Shown here in pieces: positions 2,972 through 13,877 of a stretch of DNA of 27,428 nt. Positions within the stretch are counted from its first letter, which is position 1. The number at the start of each line of letters is the position of its first letter. The position numbers and the translations under genes were made by a program. The notes under the pieces were generated by a model. It was given only the letters and a program-made list of their open reading frames with translations. It did not search any database and was not told where the DNA came from. This stretch comes from a virus (taxonomy: Duplodnaviria > Heunggongvirae > Uroviricota > Caudoviricetes), in the IMG/VR virus record IMGVR_UViG_2802429253_000015; one strand, given 5' to 3'.

Positions 2972-3150
2972 GAGACCAGGCGGGGGAGAAATCCCTCGCC
3001 ACCTCTGATGAGTCAGGCATCCTCAACGCACCCACACTTAACCTTACTAGCAAGTGGCTTTAATATTATTGTAACATTTTCATGCTCGCATGTGTTTTCT
3101 GTTGTTATGAATTAGGTACAGGGTTCTTATGCTTCTTTATCGCGATGAGC

Positions 3151-3173
3151 TTGCAACTGATTGTTAGTTGCTA
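3151..3173. promoter_or_regulatory. Palindrome TTGCAACT-gattgtt-AGTTGCTA upstream of hicA; candidate operator for HicB autoregulation
   Basis: Near-perfect inverted repeat (core GCAACT / AGTTGC at 3153-3171) about 30 bp upstream of the hicA start. Type II antitoxins with RHH domains usually bind palindromes in their own promoter. Confidence 0.4.
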
Positions 3174-3199
3174 TTGGTGGGGGAAGGGATATACTTTAA

Positions 3200-3448
3200 A
3201 TGAGCAAAAAAGAGAAGTTGAGGTGGCGTCTGAATCAGCTTCCAAAGGATTTTACATGGGATGAACTCGTGACGTTGCTTGGGCATTATGGTTTCGAAAT
3301 GCTTACCGGTTCAGGCTCAAGAAGGAAGTTTACCAATGCTAATGGAAGGCTTGTGGCTTTTCATTGCCCACATCCTGGCAATATTGTTAAAGGATATGTG
3401 CTTAAAGAAGTGAAAAATCTTTTGGATGAGATTGATAGTTATGAGTAA
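3200..3448 (+). CDS. hicA: HicA-family toxin (mRNA interferase), 82 aa
   Basis: Motifs ...LTGSGSRRKF... and ...VAFHCPHPGNIVKGYVLKEV... fit the HicA/YcfA pattern (G-S-H...HxP...G...K). The toxin gene precedes the antitoxin, as is characteristic of hicAB loci. Confidence 0.7.
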   Translation: MSKKEKLRWRLNQLPKDFTWDELVTLLGHYGFEMLTGSGSRRKFTNANGRLVAFHCPHPGNIVKGYVLKEVKNLLDEIDSYE

Positions 3449-3917
3449 TGTGCTGAGTTATAAAGGTTATTTTGGCAGCATTGAGGTTTCACTTGAAGAT
3501 AACATACTTCATGGGAAAATTCAGTGCGTAAACGATGTTGTAACCTACGAAGCGGAAACACTGGATGGGTTAAGGGCGGCGTTTGAAGAAGCTGTTACAG
3601 ATTATCTCGACACATGCAAGCAGTTAGGGAAATCTCCTGATAAACCAATGAGTGGTACTTTTAACATCAGAATTGGTCGCGATCTTCATAAGAAAGCGTT
3701 TTTGGCTGCAATGGCGGATAAGACGACGCTTAATGATTATGTGCGTAAAGCTATCGAAGAAAAGATTGCTGACAAAAAAGAAGTTCATTCTCATTCGGAA
3801 AGCGAAGAAACGACAGATACATTCGTTTGGGAAAAAGCATTCTCTTTTGGTTATGTCATTTCCCCTTCAGCAAGAACAAAAAAGAAAGAGGCTGGTGAGC
3901 GATGGATGCGTCACTGA
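3441..3917 (+). CDS. hicB: HicB-family antitoxin with C-terminal ribbon-helix-helix-like segment, 158 aa
   Basis: N-terminal SYKGYFGSIEVSLEDNILHGKI... is the typical HicB-like fold signature, followed by ...SGTFNIRIGRDLHKKAFLAAMADKTTLNDYVRKAIEEK (RHH-like). ATG 3441 overlaps the hicA stop (ATGAGTAA). An alternative start at 3426 is possible. Confidence 0.7.
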   Translation: MSNVLSYKGYFGSIEVSLEDNILHGKIQCVNDVVTYEAETLDGLRAAFEEAVTDYLDTCKQLGKSPDKPMSGTFNIRIGRDLHKKAFLAAMADKTTLNDYVRKAIEEKIADKKEVHSHSESEETTDTFVWEKAFSFGYVISPSARTKKKEAGERWMRH

Positions 3918-4330
3918 TGTTACAAAATATTAAGTATGCTGGTTTCGATATTGTTTCCAGTAGTTTCAAGGATAACACTAGTGATGATGGAGGGTTTTTT
4001 AAGGTCTCGATCGAGGAAGTTAAATTTTCTTCGGGGCGCGATGATGATGGTACCTGTTGGTTCCGGATTGGATTTTCGCCATCGATAAAAGGGTATCCCG
4101 ATAGAGATGGTGCCGGGGATGAAGAACCCTCTTTTGAGCTAAAGATGGAGCTGATTACGGACTTTGATATCATGAATGGAGAGTTGATCGATGAAAAATT
4201 CTTTGTGAAAAATTCATGGTATTTTGAGAATTTCATGTCGTTGACGTTAAAATTGGCGGTGGACTCTGTTCTTAAGCACACGTCGTTAAGCGATATTTAT
4301 TTCCCCTGGTATTCGCCGGACTCAGCTTAA
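3917..4330 (+). CDS. Hypothetical strongly acidic protein (138 aa), third gene of the hicAB operon
   Basis: ATG overlaps the hicB stop in a TGATG arrangement (translational coupling); no recognisable family; followed directly by an intrinsic terminator. An alternative start at 3902 gives 142 aa. Confidence 0.55.
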   Translation: MLQNIKYAGFDIVSSSFKDNTSDDGGFFKVSIEEVKFSSGRDDDGTCWFRIGFSPSIKGYPDRDGAGDEEPSFELKMELITDFDIMNGELIDEKFFVKNSWYFENFMSLTLKLAVDSVLKHTSLSDIYFPWYSPDSA

Positions 4331-4335
4331 TAATC

Positions 4336-4365
4336 AAGCCCGCCGATGCGGGCTTTGTGTTATTC
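4336..4365 (+). terminator. Rho-independent terminator ending the hicA-hicB-orf138 operon
   Basis: Hairpin AAGCCCGC-cgat-GCGGGCTT followed by a T-rich tract (TTGTGTTATT). Confidence 0.6.
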
Positions 4366-4435
4366 CTGTGTTCTGGTTTACAATTCACATGCCAGCCTGA
4401 ACAACTGGCACCTGCTGCGCCAGCAGAGAAAACAG

Positions 4436-4708
4436 ATGGCGCACAAGACCAAATTACACAATTCTGATACCGATCGTGCCAGCAGGCACGATCGGCGTTC
4501 TCATGCATTCAAATATGACTGGTACCAGCATGACCCATGCACTGCAGAACAGGCCGAATGGCTGATTCATAACTACCGCAGACGTGGATACGAGATTAAG
4601 AAAGCCCTCAGCCTCGATTATCGTCACTGGATAATCTACGTCAGGCTGCCGTACTCCGAGCGCCCACCGCGTCCGTCCCGCACATTCCAGCAACGCATCT
4701 GGAGGTAA
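4436..4708 (+). CDS. Hypothetical basic protein (90 aa) upstream of the ydfU-like gene
   Basis: ATG at 4436; its stop at 4706-4708 is 1 nt before the GTG of the next gene, whose GGAGG ribosome-binding site lies inside this ORF's 3' end. Weak ribosome-binding site of its own. Confidence 0.4.
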   Translation: MAHKTKLHNSDTDRASRHDRRSHAFKYDWYQHDPCTAEQAEWLIHNYRRRGYEIKKALSLDYRHWIIYVRLPYSERPPRPSRTFQQRIWR

Positions 4709-4709
4709 C

Positions 4710-5759
4710 GTGAGGGTATTAGTGACTCCTGAAATTGCTCACCGCCTGGGGATTGTACTTTTCAGGCCCGGTCCTGATGCGATGCCTTTGTTTATGCAGG
4801 GGCGTGTGCTGGTGGAGCCTGAACCGAAAAGCATGCGCGGGCTGCCGTCCGGAGTTGTTCCTGCCGTTCGCCAGCCGCTGGCGGAGGATAAATCATTACT
4901 GCCATTTTTCAGCGATGAGCGGGTGATTCGTGCTGCCGGCGGCGCTGGTGCACTGTCTGACTGGCTCCTGCGTCATGTTAAATCCTGCCAGTGGCCTCAT
5001 GGTGACTACCATCACAGCGAAACCGTCATACATCGTTACGGTACCGGCGCGATGGTGTTGTGCTGGCACTGCGACAACCAACTGCGTGACCAGACCTCAG
5101 AATCACTTGAGCAACTTGCTCAACAAAACCTGACAGCATGGATGATTGACGTCATCCGTCACGCAATAAGCGGTGCGCAGGAGCGGGAATTATCGCTGGC
5201 TGAATTATCTTGGTGGGCGGTCTGCAATCAGGTGGCGGACGCACTACCGGAGGCAGTATTACGTCGCTCTCTGGGGGTACGAGAGGAAAAAATCCGCTCT
5301 GTGTACCGCGAAAGCGACATCGTACCGGGAGAACAGACAGCCACCAGCATACTGAAGCAGCGCACAAAAAATCTTGCGCCGTTGCCTCACGTCCACCAGC
5401 AACAAATCCCGCCACAGGAAAAGACGGTGGTCAGCATTGCCGTTGATCCAGAGTCTCCGGAATCTTTCATGAAGCTGCCTAAACGTCGCCGCTGGGTTAA
5501 GGAGAAATACACACGTTGGGTTAAGACACAGCCGTGTGCTTGCTGCGGTATGCCAGCCGACGATCCGCATCATCTGATTGGTCACGGTCAGGGTGGAATG
5601 GGTACAAAAGCGCATGACCTCTTTGTGTTGCCTTTGTGCAGAAAGCATCACGACGAGCTGCATGCGGATACCGTGGCATTTGAAAAGAAGTATGGCTCCC
5701 AGCTGGAGCTGATATTTCGTTTTATCGATCGTGCGCTGGCAATTGGCGTATTGGCGTAA
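4710..5759 (+). CDS. ydfU: YdfU-like DUF968 prophage protein (349 aa), GTG start
   Basis: GGAGG 4 nt upstream of GTG 4710. C-terminal cysteine/histidine cluster ...CACCGMPADDPHHLIGHGQGGMGTKAHDLFVLPLCRKHHDELH... typical of the YdfU/DUF968 family found just upstream of Q in Qin-like prophages. Confidence 0.75.
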   Translation: MRVLVTPEIAHRLGIVLFRPGPDAMPLFMQGRVLVEPEPKSMRGLPSGVVPAVRQPLAEDKSLLPFFSDERVIRAAGGAGALSDWLLRHVKSCQWPHGDYHHSETVIHRYGTGAMVLCWHCDNQLRDQTSESLEQLAQQNLTAWMIDVIRHAISGAQERELSLAELSWWAVCNQVADALPEAVLRRSLGVREEKIRSVYRESDIVPGEQTATSILKQRTKNLAPLPHVHQQQIPPQEKTVVSIAVDPESPESFMKLPKRRRWVKEKYTRWVKTQPCACCGMPADDPHHLIGHGQGGMGTKAHDLFVLPLCRKHHDELHADTVAFEKKYGSQLELIFRFIDRALAIGVLA

Positions 5760-8856: not shown

Positions 8857-9156
8857 AAAAATTCCTTAATACTGATAACTTGGCGCACTATACACACGTT
8901 CCTGAAGAAAGCTATAGTTTTTTGATGGGGTTGAAGATGGCTGGATGTCTAAAATAAACATTGCTTCATATGTTCAACTATGAGTTAATGATTGCGTCGG
9001 TTTGAAGAACAGACGATATACGAAGTAGTTTACTAAAGCAGTTCTCATTTCAGGTGTTATTCACTTATTCCTTCTTTGAGTCTCTCCAATTAAGTACGAA
9101 GTCGTTTCTGTTATACAAACCATTTATGCCGAAAGGCTCAAGTTAAGGAATGTAGA

Positions 9157-9372
9157 ATGTCAAATAAAATGACTGGTTTAGTAAAATGGTTTAACGCTGA
9201 TAAAGGTTTTGGCTTTATTTCTCCTGTTGATGGTAGTAAAGATGTGTTTGTGCATTTTTCTGCGATTCAGAATGATAATTATCGAACCTTATTTGAAGGT
9301 CAAAAGGTTACCTTCTCTGTAGAGAGTGGTGCTAAAGGTCCTGCAGCAGCAAATGTCATCATTAATGATTAA
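9157..9372 (+). CDS. cspB: CspA-family cold-shock protein paralog, CspB/CspI-like (71 aa)
   Basis: Translation [38 protein letters not shown]... carries the canonical RNP1/RNP2 motifs (KGFGFI, VFVHF). Divergent from the cspF-like gene across a ~300-bp intergenic region, as in Qin. Confidence 0.85.
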
Positions 9373-9653
9373 AATTCATAGTTTGTCTGTATACGATAAC
9401 GAAGAAGGCTGATGCCTGAGTGGAGATACAGACAGAGTGGCGAATATTGGATCTCTTTAATAAAGAGTAAGGAGGTCCAATACATGAAACAATGGCCAGC
9501 ATATTTGGTAATAACTTAATCAGGAAAAGTATGCTAACCATTGTGGTGAAGTGCAGGTTTGCTGCATGAATAGTTTTACAGCAGAAGCTAACTGCTGGCA
9601 TAGCAAAACAAAGTGCGTAAGTGGATGACTCTCACAAAAAGCACCACAATATT

Positions 9654-11209: not shown

Positions 11210-11743
11210 ATGAACGTAAAAATCAGATACAGCCTGTCGGCTGCTGTTCTGGCTCTGATTGCCGCCAGTGCTCCTGCCCCTGACATTCTCGATCAGTTTC
11301 TGGATGAAAAAGAGGGGAATCACACCACTGCATACCGCGATGGCTCCGGCATATGGACCATCTGTCGGGGAGCAACGATGGTGGACGGTAAACCTGTTAT
11401 TCCGGGAATGAAACTGTCGAAGGAAAAATGCGCCCAGGTTAACGCCATTGAGCGGGATAAGGCGCTGGCATGGGTGGAGCGCAATATAAAAGTTCCACTG
11501 ACCGAGCCACAGAAAGCCGGTATCGCGTCATTCTGTCCCTATAACATTGGCCCCGGTAAGTGTTTTCCGTCGACGTTTTATAAGCGGCTGAATGCCGGTG
11601 ATCGTAAAGGCGCATGCGAGGCGATTCGCTGGTGGATAAAGGACGGTGGACGTGATTGCCGCATTCGTTCAAATAATTGTTACGGTCAGGTTATTCGTCG
11701 TGACCAGGAAAGCGTATTAGCCTGTTGGGGGATAGAGCAGTGA
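11210..11743 (+). CDS. rrrD: SAR endolysin (T4-lysozyme-like glycoside hydrolase family 24), RrrD/R21-type, 177 aa
   Basis: N-terminal signal-anchor-release segment ([16 protein letters not shown]) followed by the lysozyme core ...[22 protein letters not shown]...; closely matches my recollection of RrrD. Pairs functionally with the pinholin. Confidence 0.9.
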
Positions 11744-12204
11744 GCAGAGTTGCCGCGATTATTTATGCTCTGGCTATCTGCATCATCGTCTGCCTGTCAT
11801 GGGCTGTTAATCATTACCGTGATAACGCCATCGCCTACAAAGAACAGCGTGATAAAAAAGTCAGTGAGCTGAAGCAGGTGACCGCCAACATTACTGACAT
11901 GCAGCAGCGCCAGCGTGCTGCTGATGCACTCGATGCTAAATACACGAAGGAGTTAGCTGATGCGAAAGCTGAAAATGATGCTCTGCGTGATGATGTTGCC
12001 GCTGGTCGTCGTCGGTTGCACATCAAAGCAGTCTGTCAGTCAGTGCGTGAAGCCACCACCGCCTCCGGCGTGGATAATGCAGCCTCCCCCCGACTGGCAG
12101 ACACCGCTGAACGGGATTATTTCACCCTCAGAGAGCGGCTGATATTGATGCAAAAACAACTGGAGGGGGCACAGCTATATATTAGCGAGCAATGCCTCAG
12201 ATAA
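11740..12204 (+). CDS. Rz: Rz i-spanin (inner-membrane spanin subunit), 154 aa, GTG start
   Basis: GTG overlaps the endolysin stop (GTGA); N-terminal transmembrane helix then coiled-coil-like ...[28 protein letters not shown]... Confidence 0.85.
11960..12142 (+). CDS. Rz1: Rz1 o-spanin lipoprotein embedded in the +1 frame of Rz, 60 aa
   Basis: Lipobox LVVVGC followed by a proline-rich mature region ([15 protein letters not shown]), entirely inside Rz; the classic embedded spanin architecture. Confidence 0.75.
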
Positions 12205-12821
12205 AAAACCGGCCAAGGATAATCCGCTGAAGATTCGCCGGCGGCAAAGGAATGCCAATACATGAGCATAGGCGATTACCTGTGCTCATGCAATGTATTG
12301 CCTTTATGTGGATTGTGGGCAATAGATTTCTGATCTATTTCTGTGCGCCGTATCGTCGCCGTATTCCCCCATTAACAGAGACCGTAGCCCGACGGGGAAT
12401 TCCTTCTGCGCGAGTGTGCGGGAATAATCAAAAACGATGCACACCGGGTTTTTACCGCGTTTATGATTCGCGGGTTTGTCCCTCATGCTCGCCAGCCCTG
12501 TGCGAGGGTGGAAGAAACAGGGCATGTATTCAGGAGCGTGCGGCCACGGTCGCACGGTATCTTTGTCAGGAGGTTGTGATGAAAGAGTCGCAGAAATTTA
12601 ATTCAATAATGGAACGATTCTGTTCTCCTGAGCGAGAGGCTTACATCATGCATTCATTGAGTGCCTGTTGTAATATCGCCAAACATTAATCAGGTGCGCG
12701 AGATGTCGGCTAATACTGACCCTGACGAAATGTGACGCTGCTCTAATCTGAAAGATGGTGCAGACGACCTATAGTTCGCATCCATTCCTGATTACCCTAT
12801 TCAAGTTGATGAGACAGAAAC

Positions 12822-13067
12822 ATGACAGCAGCTAAAGAGCAGATTGAATATGAGCTAAATGAATTCTTCGCGTCCGCCCTTGGTGATGTGTTTAAAAGTT
12901 GCCGACTGGCTGAAAGCGTATCGGATTACCAGATCTCTACTGTTAGTTTTCCAACGGAAAAAAACGCCTGGTTGGAGCTTGGTGAATTACCCGTGATTAT
13001 CGAGTTGTCTAACGGACGTTGCTTTGAGATTAGTGCGTCTGAATGGTTGCAGATCACACCGCTTTAA
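12822..13067 (+). CDS. Hypothetical protein (81 aa) between the lysis cassette and cos
   Basis: ORF with ATG start; no recognised family; sits in the position where lambda carries small unknown ORFs upstream of cos. Confidence 0.4.
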   Translation: MTAAKEQIEYELNEFFASALGDVFKSCRLAESVSDYQISTVSFPTEKNAWLELGELPVIIELSNGRCFEISASEWLQITPL

Positions 13068-13129
13068 ATTAAGCCCGCTGCCCACCTTGGCTACAGGCAT
13101 TCGCTAGTGGCTGGGTCCTTTCCGGCGAT

Positions 13130-13331
13130 CCGGCAGGCTACGGGGCGTCAGACGCGCGGGTTTTCGCTATTTATGAAAATTTTCCGGTTTAAGGCGTTTC
13201 CGTTCTTCTTCGCCGTAACCTAATGTTTTTATTTAAAACACCCCCTGAAAAGAAAGGAAACGACAGGTGCTGAAAACGAGCTTTTTGGCCTCTGTCGTTT
13301 CCTTTCTCTGTTTTTGTCCGTGGAATGAACA
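13130..13331. other. cos: cos site of a lambda-type packaging system: cosN (about 13143-13154) and cosB with Nu1-binding R elements (R3 about 13192-13210; inverted R2/R1 about 13246-13311)
   Basis: Sequence ...ACGGGGCGTCAGACG-CGCGGGTTTTCGCTATTTATGAAAATTTTCCGGTTTAAGGCGTTTCCG... is near-collinear with the lambda left end as I recall it. Inverted R elements AAAGGAAACGACAG / CTGTCGTTTCCTTT are present. Nu1 starts about 190 bp from cosN, as in lambda. Confidence 0.8.
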
Positions 13332-13851
13332 ATGGAAGTCAACAAAAAGCAGCTGGCTGACATTTTCGGTGCGAGTATCCGTACCATTCAGAACTGGCAG
13401 GAGCAGGGAATGCCAGTTCTGCGAGGCGGTGGGAAGGGTAATGAGGTGCTTTATGACTCTGCCGCCGTCATAAAATGGTATGCCGAAAGGGATGCTGAAA
13501 TTGAGAACGAAAAGCTGCGCCGGGAGGTTGAAGAACTGCGGCAGGCCAGCGAGACAGATCTGCAGCCAGGGACTATTGAGTACGAACGCCATCGACTTAC
13601 GCGTGCGCAGGCCGACGCACAGGAGCTGAAAAATGCCAGAGACTCCGCTGAAGTGGTGGAAACCGCATTCTGTACTTTCGTGCTGTCGCGGATCGCAGGT
13701 GAAATTGCCAGTATTCTCGACGGGATCCCCCTGTCGGTGCAGCGGCGTTTTCCGGAACTGGAAAACCGACATGTTGATTTCCTGAAACGGGATATCATCA
13801 AAGCCATGAACAAAGCAGCCGCGCTGGATGAACTGATACCGGAGTTGCTGA

Positions 13852-13877
<26 letters not shown>
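13332..13877 (+). CDS. nu1: Terminase small subunit Nu1 (181 aa)
   Basis: MEVNKKQLADIFGASIRTIQNWQEQGMP... is the lambda Nu1 HTH N-terminus; same length as lambda gpNu1. Confidence 0.95.

Follow-up and report, generated by a model that had tools for sequence, protein, structure and literature searches.

Modules between the lysis genes and cos

We analyzed positions 12205 to 13331 of a 27,428-nucleotide (nt) Caudoviricetes record, IMGVR_UViG_2802429253_000015 (this whole stretch is called the window below). The interval lies between the lysis cassette and cos, where it forms an accessory ("moron") slot, and it consists of short modules joined via recombination. One of these modules, at 12344 to 12527 and called the element here, is, as judged from its homologues, noncoding, with a conserved plus-strand fold that ends in an H-type pseudoknot, both stems of which covary. 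Seen only as a mosaic junction that contains decayed genes, the interval would be ordinary; it is set apart by the pseudoknotted element, which lies under a spurious open reading frame (ORF). The modules and the genes that anchor them are as follows (aa, amino acids; tRNA, transfer RNA).

11740-12204, plus strand: Rz (i-spanin), found as an ORF; final gene of the lysis cassette, anchoring the interval on the left
11960-12142, plus strand: Rz1, embedded in Rz
12205-12343, plus strand: spacer with hairpins, in an arrangement without bor (local BLAST, inverted-repeat and folding analysis)
12344-12527, plus strand: conserved structured noncoding element (nhmmer, alignment A1, RNAalifold)
12528-12634, plus strand: 5' end of a phrog_2571 cargo cassette (BLAST match to AR_0089 and PhiR46_1)
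12641-12797, plus strand: debris of an HK97-like phage, namely an inverted-repeat/putative promoter unit and a truncated tRNA-like gene (match to mEp390)
12806-13112, plus strand: intact cargo cassette with an 81-aa orphan gene (match to L193)
13113-13331, plus strand: lambda-type cos region, with the cosQ side from 13113, the cosN overhang at 13143-13154, and then cosB
13332-13877: Nu1, up to which cosB extends; the cos region is the right anchor of the interval

The mosaic map was drawn from local BLAST comparisons with lambda, DLP12, Qin, and eleven other loci, and it has at least six joints, at 12195/96, 12343/44, ∼12527, 12634, ∼12806, and 13112/13. A preliminary description of this DNA had placed the switch from one lineage to another between 12205 and 13130, with a 21/DLP12-like lysis cassette on the left and near collinearity with lambda to the right of about 13130. 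The interval is indeed mosaic, but there is no single breakpoint; the collinearity with lambda is real and begins at 13113. The description of the lysis cassette did not hold. Rz, the homology of which stops at 12195, is 89.7% identical to Rz of lambda and 88.9% identical to rzpD of DLP12, and the endolysin gene (11210-11743) is Qin-like (88%). Because Rz is equally near to lambda and DLP12 and the endolysin is Qin-like, to set a 21/DLP12-like lysis cassette against lambda is too simple. Lambda has bor and other accessory genes at this place. Decayed accessory genes were found, but bor was not: nothing in the window aligned by BLAST to lambda 46428-46866 or to borD of DLP12.

Continuous identity to one reference phage would have spoken against a junction, and there was none: 0 of 311 matching phage records spanned at least 80% of positions 12150 to 13350. 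Two of 5426 complete Escherichia coli genomes covered at least 80% of the same span, each from 12344 onward only. The two sides of the window do have close relatives. The IMG/VR contig L118 is 97.6% identical to the window over 12100-12524, with one mismatch before 12400, and is divergent afterwards; AVS0969 and 30859 match the window from 12344 rightward, past cos. These two lineages overlap in the element only, and their mismatch profiles cross at ∼12400-12500. By this comparison the window's left-to-right lineage switch maps inside the conserved element, at ∼12400-12500.

The conserved element

The window has one copy of the element, which nhmmer scored at 200.7 bits. Among the 5426 complete E. 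coli genomes, 4592 (∼85%) carry it, at 11,793 places and with a median of two per genome. Annotation at five listed E. coli places gave no feature at four and a hypothetical protein over the element at one. It is also in 425 phage records, nearly all of them named as Escherichia, Shigella, Enterobacteria, or Shiga toxin (Stx)-converting phages; carriers include lambda (46868-47033) and short-tailed Stx phages. The DLP12 copy is at 579009-579175 of K-12, between borD and ybcV, and in the Stx2 phage 86 the copy is located past the bor start, at a distance of 116 nt, with the small terminase gene 115 nt farther on. The element starts at the identical base in every locus, irrespective of the left flank. 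Over 125 IMG/VR and reference loci, the flanks fell into 24 downstream and 22 upstream classes, and the orientation was always that of the late strand, 3' of the lysis genes.

The genuine matches found here were all in Escherichia or Shigella lambdoid and Stx phages. In a scan of genome contigs, the real matches outside Escherichia all had non-enterobacterial titles and were mostly identical at 124.1 bits. The identical lambda sequence, at 124.1 bits each, was found in L137, L143, L146, L149, L162, L168, L169, L175, L178, L189, and others, in assemblies titled Cohnella, Pedobacter, Flavobacterium, Polaromonas, Shewanella, Pseudomonas, and others; several of the contigs were ∼3.5 kb or 48.5 kb long. 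We took these matches to be lambda control DNA contaminating public genomes. Because of this contamination, and because ∼69 chance 18-mer matches were expected, the genome-contig search says little about host range.

The ORF that covers the element can be described as follows.

12252-12689, plus strand: 145-aa ORF (ORF list; frame and codon-position test in homologues of 12344-12527)

The preliminary description had doubted that this ORF is a real gene, and the doubt was justified. We used 86 distinct homologues of 12344-12527 for a coding test. Only 34 of the 86 keep the frame open throughout the element, and a net −1 indel across 12344-12450, the best-conserved half, occurs in 46 of 85. The summed variability at codon positions 1, 2, and 3 was 3.73, 3.39, and 2.07, respectively; i.e., the third position is the least variable. 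The ORF has no Pfam match, and its one PHROG match, to family 6954 ("Rz-like spanin"), covers residues 32-69, which are the conserved element only. By these tests the 145-aa ORF is spurious and not a gene. PHROG 6954 itself looks like a family of ORFs called over the noncoding element, in which case the calls are spurious and the label misleading. An annotated "Rz-like spanin" feature in NC_049923.1 (22943-23121) likewise lies under the element. The annotations to clean up would include PHROG 6954 and the scattered "hypothetical proteins" over the element, as artifacts, and the 36-aa ORF discussed below, as the remnant of a longer gene.

We aligned the homologues by sequence only with MAFFT (alignment A1), obtained a fold with RNAalifold, and then extended the 3' hairpin to an H-type pseudoknot ourselves. 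The predicted parts, all on the plus strand, are as follows.

12350-56/12434-40, plus strand: stem P2 of the 5' domain (A1 and RNAalifold)
12362-72/12416-26, plus strand: stem P3 of the 5' domain (A1 and RNAalifold)
12382-87/12406-12, plus strand: stem P5 of the 5' domain (A1 and RNAalifold)
12388-90/12395-97, plus strand: tip hairpin P6 of the 5' domain (A1 and RNAalifold)
12455-59/12469-73, plus strand: variable middle hairpin, closed by P7 at 12446-48/12480-82 (A1 and RNAalifold)
12488-92/12502-06, plus strand: pseudoknot stem S1, CUCGC/GCGAG (extension of the 3' hairpin)
12495-501/12517-23, plus strand: pseudoknot stem S2, GCCCUGU/ACAGGGC (extension of the 3' hairpin)
12507-16, plus strand: pseudoknot loop L3, GGUGGAAGAA, purine-rich and near-invariant (A1)

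In A1, 96.8% of the pair cells are paired versus 34 to 62% with the partners slid. Fourteen pairs change on both sides, compared with 7.6 ± 1.5 in shuffles, and none of 500 shuffles reached 14. The loop of the S1 hairpin pairs with a downstream segment to form S2, which is what defines an H-type pseudoknot, and both stems are supported across homologues. S1 is paired in 94 to 97% of cases, and all three of its outer pairs covary (GU43/CG29/UG3/AU1, UA45/UG21/CG13, and CG69/AU8); the Kati type has another S1 sequence (GCCAG/CUGGC) in the same register. S2 is 94.6% paired, with changes on both sides in four of seven pairs (pair 174-200, for example, is GC40/UA24/GU12). The middle hairpin has been swapped between classes for unrelated sequences that still form a hairpin, and in the 933W type a 9-nt gap in A1 deletes the tip hairpin P6 and adjacent bases. 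In A1, ∼108 of ∼185 positions are at least 90% conserved, including the unpaired AAUCAAAAACGAU, CACACCGGG, and GGUGGAAGAA.

The strands are not equivalent. Pairing is 97.4% on the plus strand versus 87.9% on the minus strand, and there are 408 G·U cells versus 34 A·C cells. Because the plus strand is better paired and G·U exceeds A·C, the fold would be that of an RNA in the sense of the late transcript. On this asymmetry we rejected an RNA from the minus strand, such as a 5' untranslated region of bor.

Two other candidate signals within the element were also rejected. Its sole promoter-like site (12438-12467) is in the variable hairpin and is not conserved. The heptamer GGGTTTG at 12471-12477 fits the X XXY YYZ pattern of a programmed −1 frameshift signal and lies 9 nt before S1; because it is absent from the other classes and no ORF is conserved, we regard it as a coincidence.

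Directly after the pseudoknot, and just before the cos/terminase region, several phages have a sequence that resembles a Fur box (AATGATAACCATTATCATT or TGACAATCATTATCATT). Such sites are at ∼2860-2885 in PhiR5_1 (L013) and in downstream flank classes 7, 8, and 12.

Recombination, proposed role, and rival explanations

The two halves of the element have different histories. The type of the 5' half tracks the upstream flank (adjusted mutual information, 0.54 versus 0.37), the type of the 3' half tracks the downstream flank (0.67 versus 0.32), and the half-types occur in 40 combinations among 120 loci. Since each half follows its own flank, since there are so many combinations, and since the window's own lineages cross inside it, the element appears to be a recurrent crossover site.

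No conserved promoter was found before the element and no canonical terminator or U-tract after the pseudoknot, and for this reason it is probably transcribed within the Q-antiterminated late (pR') transcript, without a promoter of its own. A classical Hfq-type small RNA (sRNA) gene was rejected: the upstream flanks are unrelated up to the first base, and there is no conserved U-tract after S2.

The best overall explanation, in which we have moderate confidence, is that the interval is an accessory slot built from modules and that the slot contains a conserved noncoding element acting in cis on the late RNA and serving also as a recombination linker. Among the modules of the interval, only the element looks both functional and widely conserved. 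Our best guess about the element itself, from comparison of its homologues, is likewise that it would be both a cis-acting part of the late transcript and a linker, but these two parts deserve different degrees of belief. At the level of DNA, it is fairly likely that the invariant core provides the shared homology at which lambdoid phages swap cargo and packaging modules. At the level of RNA, we propose only tentatively a cis-acting role, in which the folded element would form a barrier, or be a point of processing, where the lysis segment ends. Such a barrier or processing point would set both the stability of the upstream lysis messenger RNA (mRNA) and the 5' boundary of the downstream cargo/packaging mRNA.

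If the fold is real, an unannotated structured RNA lies at the boundary between lysis and packaging genes in lambda, in the Stx-converting phages, and in most E. coli genomes. It would provide a way into the partitioning or stabilization of the 25-kb late transcript and a physical explanation for the frequent exchange of cargo and packaging modules here.

Several results weigh against a folded, cis-acting element. The folding energy of the single sequence is ordinary (z = −0.19), and conservation is not exceptional in every pair of phages: compared with lambda, the element is 79% identical versus 89.7% for Rz, so that in some pairs it is no better conserved than Rz. Only a few sequence classes supply the covarying pairs, so that independent events are few, and the shuffle control ignores relatedness; the structure was also derived from A1, the same alignment in which the pairs were counted. 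The lack of a conserved promoter or terminator argues against a classical sRNA without proving a cis role. Finally, the transcription, the RNA ends, and the function of the element are all read from sequence.

The strong conservation could instead mean that the element is a stand-alone RNA, cut from the late transcript or made from an unrecognized promoter. It might act as a ribozyme, cutting itself and so splitting the late mRNA, or as a decoy that binds protein or RNA, e.g., an anti-defense RNA. That ∼108 of ∼185 positions are at least 90% conserved, unpaired stretches included, is more typical of ribozymes and of RNAs that bind ligands or proteins than of a stabilizer. The multidomain fold with its pseudoknot also fits, as does the location in an accessory slot, where a related phage has an Acb2/Tad1-like gene. 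Set against this are the lack of a match to any Rfam ribozyme or sRNA even at E values up to 10, the lack of a conserved promoter or terminator, and the absence of the Hfq-bound lambda sRNAs (PreS, LPR2, and 6S RNA) from the element site. We consider a stand-alone RNA unlikely. We give about the same low credence to the broader proposal that the element is a new class of functional RNA from the lambda/Stx late transcript, either a self-processing RNA or ribozyme that separates lysis from packaging mRNA or a stand-alone pseudoknotted RNA that binds a host or defense factor. If it were true, a player would have been overlooked in the best-studied phage.

The downstream context suggests another role, that of a 5' leader or translational operator for the cargo genes that follow or, where cargo is missing, for the small terminase gene. 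Both in the window and in AR_0089 and PhiR46_1, the pseudoknot is followed after ∼55 nt by the start of a plus-strand gene that has a strong ribosome-binding site, and in several phage types the small terminase gene is 110 to 320 nt downstream of the element. Three loci (L010, L022, and L050) have two copies; in PhiR46_1 (L010) copy 1 precedes plus-strand cargo genes and copy 2 is just before cos and Nu1. However, the arrangement seen most often, in 27 of 125 loci and among them lambda and DLP12, has ybcV as the next gene; it is encoded on the other strand, and its end is 8 nt away from the element. The downstream genes belong to many unrelated families, with at least three terminase types, and neither a common regulated gene nor a regulator is evident. 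These points weaken a leader function, which we consider improbable. We think it still less probable, indeed very doubtful, that there is no RNA function at all and that the element serves only at the DNA level, as a linker that frequent homologous recombination maintains or as a binding site, its pairing a by-product of shared ancestry. Recombination inside the element does occur, its folding energy is ordinary, and the covariation rests on few independent lineages, all of which this explanation would accommodate. It gives no account of why G·U is 12-fold more frequent than A·C among the paired positions, and it leaves unexplained the compensatory changes in both pseudoknot stems and the replacement of the middle hairpin by unrelated hairpins.

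The element appears to be undescribed. Copies from the window, lambda, phage 86, PhiR5_1, Kati, and PhiR46_1 gave no match in Rfam 15 at the gathering score or at E values up to 5 to 10, and the element loci of lambda and DLP12 have no annotation of any kind. Strings of its sequence were not found in bacterial or phage papers (subscription-only literature was outside the search). The Hfq-bound phage sRNAs in a lambda study by RNA interaction by ligation and sequencing (RIL-seq) are PreS, LPR2, and 6S RNA only, none at the element site; PreS/LPR1, LPR2, and 6S of lambda map away from the element. Of other phage sRNAs, svsR is located in cI, AgvB and AsxR are located just after pR', and the Pas sRNAs are by the holin/lysozyme operon and Q genes, none being placed at the element site. 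A CRISPR interference (CRISPRi) essentiality map of lambda and a deletion study of Sp5 contain no statement about the site.

The loci most like that of the window are in lambda and DLP12, which have this element too, with homology from end to end and at the corresponding place after the lysis genes. They differ from the window in having bor on the left and a minus-strand ybcV-type gene on the right, and in the sequences of the middle hairpin and S1 (lambda S1 has one mismatch).

Folded cis-acting segments are familiar in the transcripts of phage operons. Examples are the put antitermination RNAs of HK022, which are just after the early promoters, and the pseudoknot operator in the gene 32 mRNA of T4, an H-type pseudoknot upstream of a structural/replication gene, with a dedicated protein partner and one regulated gene. 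The element is of the same type, a folded RNA in a phage transcript, but has no sequence or structural homology to either, and no common regulated gene or regulator is evident for it. For the DNA-level role the nearest comparison is with the "linker" or boundary sequences between exchangeable modules that are reportedly part of the modular theory of lambdoid phages (Susskind and Botstein, and the mosaic joints of the Hendrix laboratory). Like them, the element is a short conserved stretch where crossovers fall between modules. Classical mosaic joints, however, are mostly without conserved sequence, whereas the element is long, widespread, and under constraints of RNA structure. With the orphan structured RNA motifs of prophages (ROOL, GOLLD, and raiA type) it shares a conserved fold supported by covariation and a home in phage or prophage DNA. 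It differs from them in being much smaller (∼180 nt) and in having no Rfam match, and all of its genuine matches found here were in Escherichia/Shigella lambdoid and Stx phages.

The remaining modules

The other features of the interval, on either side of the joints given above, are as follows (CDS, coding sequence).

12537-12556, plus strand: GC-rich terminator-like hairpin (hairpin scan)
12568-12573, plus strand: Shine-Dalgarno sequence AGGAGG, 5 nt upstream of the ATG at 12579
12579-12689, plus strand: 36-aa chimeric ORF with stop TAA at 12687-12689; a real start and N terminus fused to unrelated sequence
12641-12676, plus strand: degenerate inverted-repeat and extended −10 unit (mEp390 match)
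12688-12797, plus strand: truncated tRNA-like RNA pseudogene (comparison with mEp390 and IMG/VR copies)
12822-13067, plus strand: CDS of the 81-aa orphan gene (RefSeq hypothetical protein WP_000122986.1)

The preliminary description had mentioned an 8-base-pair (bp) inverted repeat in the spacer, and it is present, with arms CATGAGCA at 12261-12268 and TGCTCATG at 12283-12290. The interval has two perfect 8-bp inverted repeats, compared with a mean of 0.32 in shuffles, 7% of which reach two; the number is marginally unusual and not clearly beyond chance. The repeat is the core of a hairpin (12261-12290) that widens to imperfect 27-nt arms (12246-12272 and 12279-12305), and there is a second spacer hairpin at ∼12321-12339. 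The region 12205-12345 folds better than its own shuffles (z = −2.8). The spacer is contiguous with Rz in the bor-less loci of E. coli A10, HH97, and phage PhiR5_1, all three of which are strongly divergent from the window over 12250-12343 (15 to 26 mismatches per 50 nt); L118 is near-identical to the window across the spacer. The small RNA that had been suggested for this region has candidate counterparts in the interval, but they are at 12344-12527 and in the decayed tRNA-like gene at 12688-12797, not at the inverted repeat.

From the start of the element rightward, homology to AR_0089 (93%) and PhiR46_1 (91%) extends over 12344-12634. In these two, annotated genes of 104 and 286 aa begin at the equivalent of the ATG at 12579, with the same ribosome-binding site, and their products match phrog_2571 at 1.9e−61 and 6.7e−164. 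The possible 36-codon ORF that had been picked out for its AGGAGG 5 nt upstream is this gene start. Its product matches only positions 1-20 of the 291-position phrog_2571 profile (E = 0.068); the first ∼18 codons are kept, DNA homology breaks at 12634, and the TAA stop coincides with the start of the tRNA-like acceptor-stem remnant. Because the match is to the start of the profile only and homology ends at 12634, we read the ORF as the remnant of a longer phrog_2571 gene, its tail in foreign sequence; on this evidence it is a decayed accessory gene.

The foreign sequence is from an HK97-like phage: the window at 12641-12796 is 77.8% identical to an unannotated stretch of mEp390. Its first part is a degenerate copy of an inverted-repeat unit, the intact form of which is TTACAGCAGGCATTCACTGAGTGCCTGTGATAATG. 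The core of the unit (an inverted repeat with a TGnGATAAT-type extended −10 behind it, ACAGGCATTCACTGAGTGCCTGTGATAATG) is in more than 120 IMG/VR contigs (L221-L300 and more). For the copy at 12641-12676 we infer from this sequence a possible promoter role. In L213 and L220 the unit stands in for the terminator after the tRNA-like gene, as if it marked cassette boundaries in HK97-like phages.

The second part is a tRNA-like gene. Intact copies of ∼125 nt are found in mEp390 (L197, ∼2548-2672) and as 14 further distinct sequences among 23 matching IMG/VR loci (including L198-L220). All share an acceptor stem of 7 bp and a canonical T-arm, the loop of which is UUCGAAU; most of them end in ACCA, after which comes an intrinsic terminator, and 9 of their 38 predicted pairs have compensatory changes. 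The acceptor stem, the T-arm with its loop, the discriminator base plus CCA, and the terminator are shared with tRNA and transfer-messenger RNA (tmRNA). In contrast to these, the intact relatives are ∼125 nt long and have extra arms, no recognizable anticodon arm, and no G3·U70. ARAGORN found no tRNA or tmRNA in the window or in the intact relatives, and the Rfam tRNA and tmRNA models did not accept them, the tRNA model matching the T-arm only (13.8 bits). The window copy keeps the acceptor stem (AAUCAGG/CCUGAUU, which is also an inverted repeat of the interval scan), but a 15-nt deletion has taken out part of the long arm together with the 5' strand of the T-stem. Its T-loop carries mutations, ACCC stands in place of ACCA at the end, and there is no terminator. 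Given the lost 15 nt, the ACCC end, and the missing terminator, we read it as a pseudogene. This decayed gene points to a separate RNA family of HK97-like phages, one without annotation in mEp390 and without a match in Rfam. On a viral contig with the tRNA-like gene (L198), four matches to the STnc100 sRNA lie within one stretch of 13.9 kb, at 3800-5227 and 12723-12906.

The 81-aa gene, previously described as hypothetical, is present at 12822-13067 and is, by sequence conservation, an intact member of a real small family. The family has 10 protein clusters, and Escherichia is the source of every cluster that has a source name; alignment with relatives at 74% identity shows 46 invariant columns and no indels. 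The AlphaFold2 model of the protein is confident, with a predicted local distance difference test (pLDDT) score of 82.5. It had no Foldseek match in PDB or BFVD at E ≤ 0.001, and Pfam, PHROGs, and NCBIfam gave no informative family match. For the ORFs as a whole, these three databases yielded nothing beyond the phrog_2571 link and the spurious match to PHROG 6954.

In Hendrix's usage, a moron is autonomous: it has its own promoter and terminator and has been inserted between genes that are neighbors in related phages. The 81-aa cassette does move as a unit: 12806-13112 is 77% identical to L193 3985-4291, from a different phage type with HNH/Terminase_4 genes. Its sole promoter-like site, at 12748-12775, has 9 of 12 matches, which is within chance expectation, and no terminator was found for the cassette. 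In the post-lysis slot of L193 the 81-aa homologue (4001-4246, 74%) is two genes after a gene of the Acb2/Tad1-hairpin family (2979-3272). By analogy this neighbor may indicate an anti-defense neighborhood, but it is only a hint.

From 13113 onward the sequence is that of a lambda-type cos region with a putative cohesive-end site. It is ∼97% identical to DLP12, Qin, and lambda from 13113/13155; identity to lambda is 90% over the 30 nt left of cosN and 97.6% from 13155 on. The predicted 12-nt cosN overhang of the window (13143-13154) is GGGCGTCAGACG, which is unlike the GGGCGGCGACCT of lambda and most fetched loci at 5 positions, and a third variant, GGGCGGAAGGCG, is found in AVS0969-type prophages. 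The cosQ/cosB flanks in the window stay 90 to 97% lambda-like.

Outside the interval, two further matches in the window exceeded the Rfam gathering score, both on the plus strand: the cspA thermoregulator at 8996-9388 (155 bits) and the sok antitoxin RNA at 2648-2818 (103 bits). These matches suggest that a cold-shock gene leader and a hok/sok-type module are located upstream in the same prophage.

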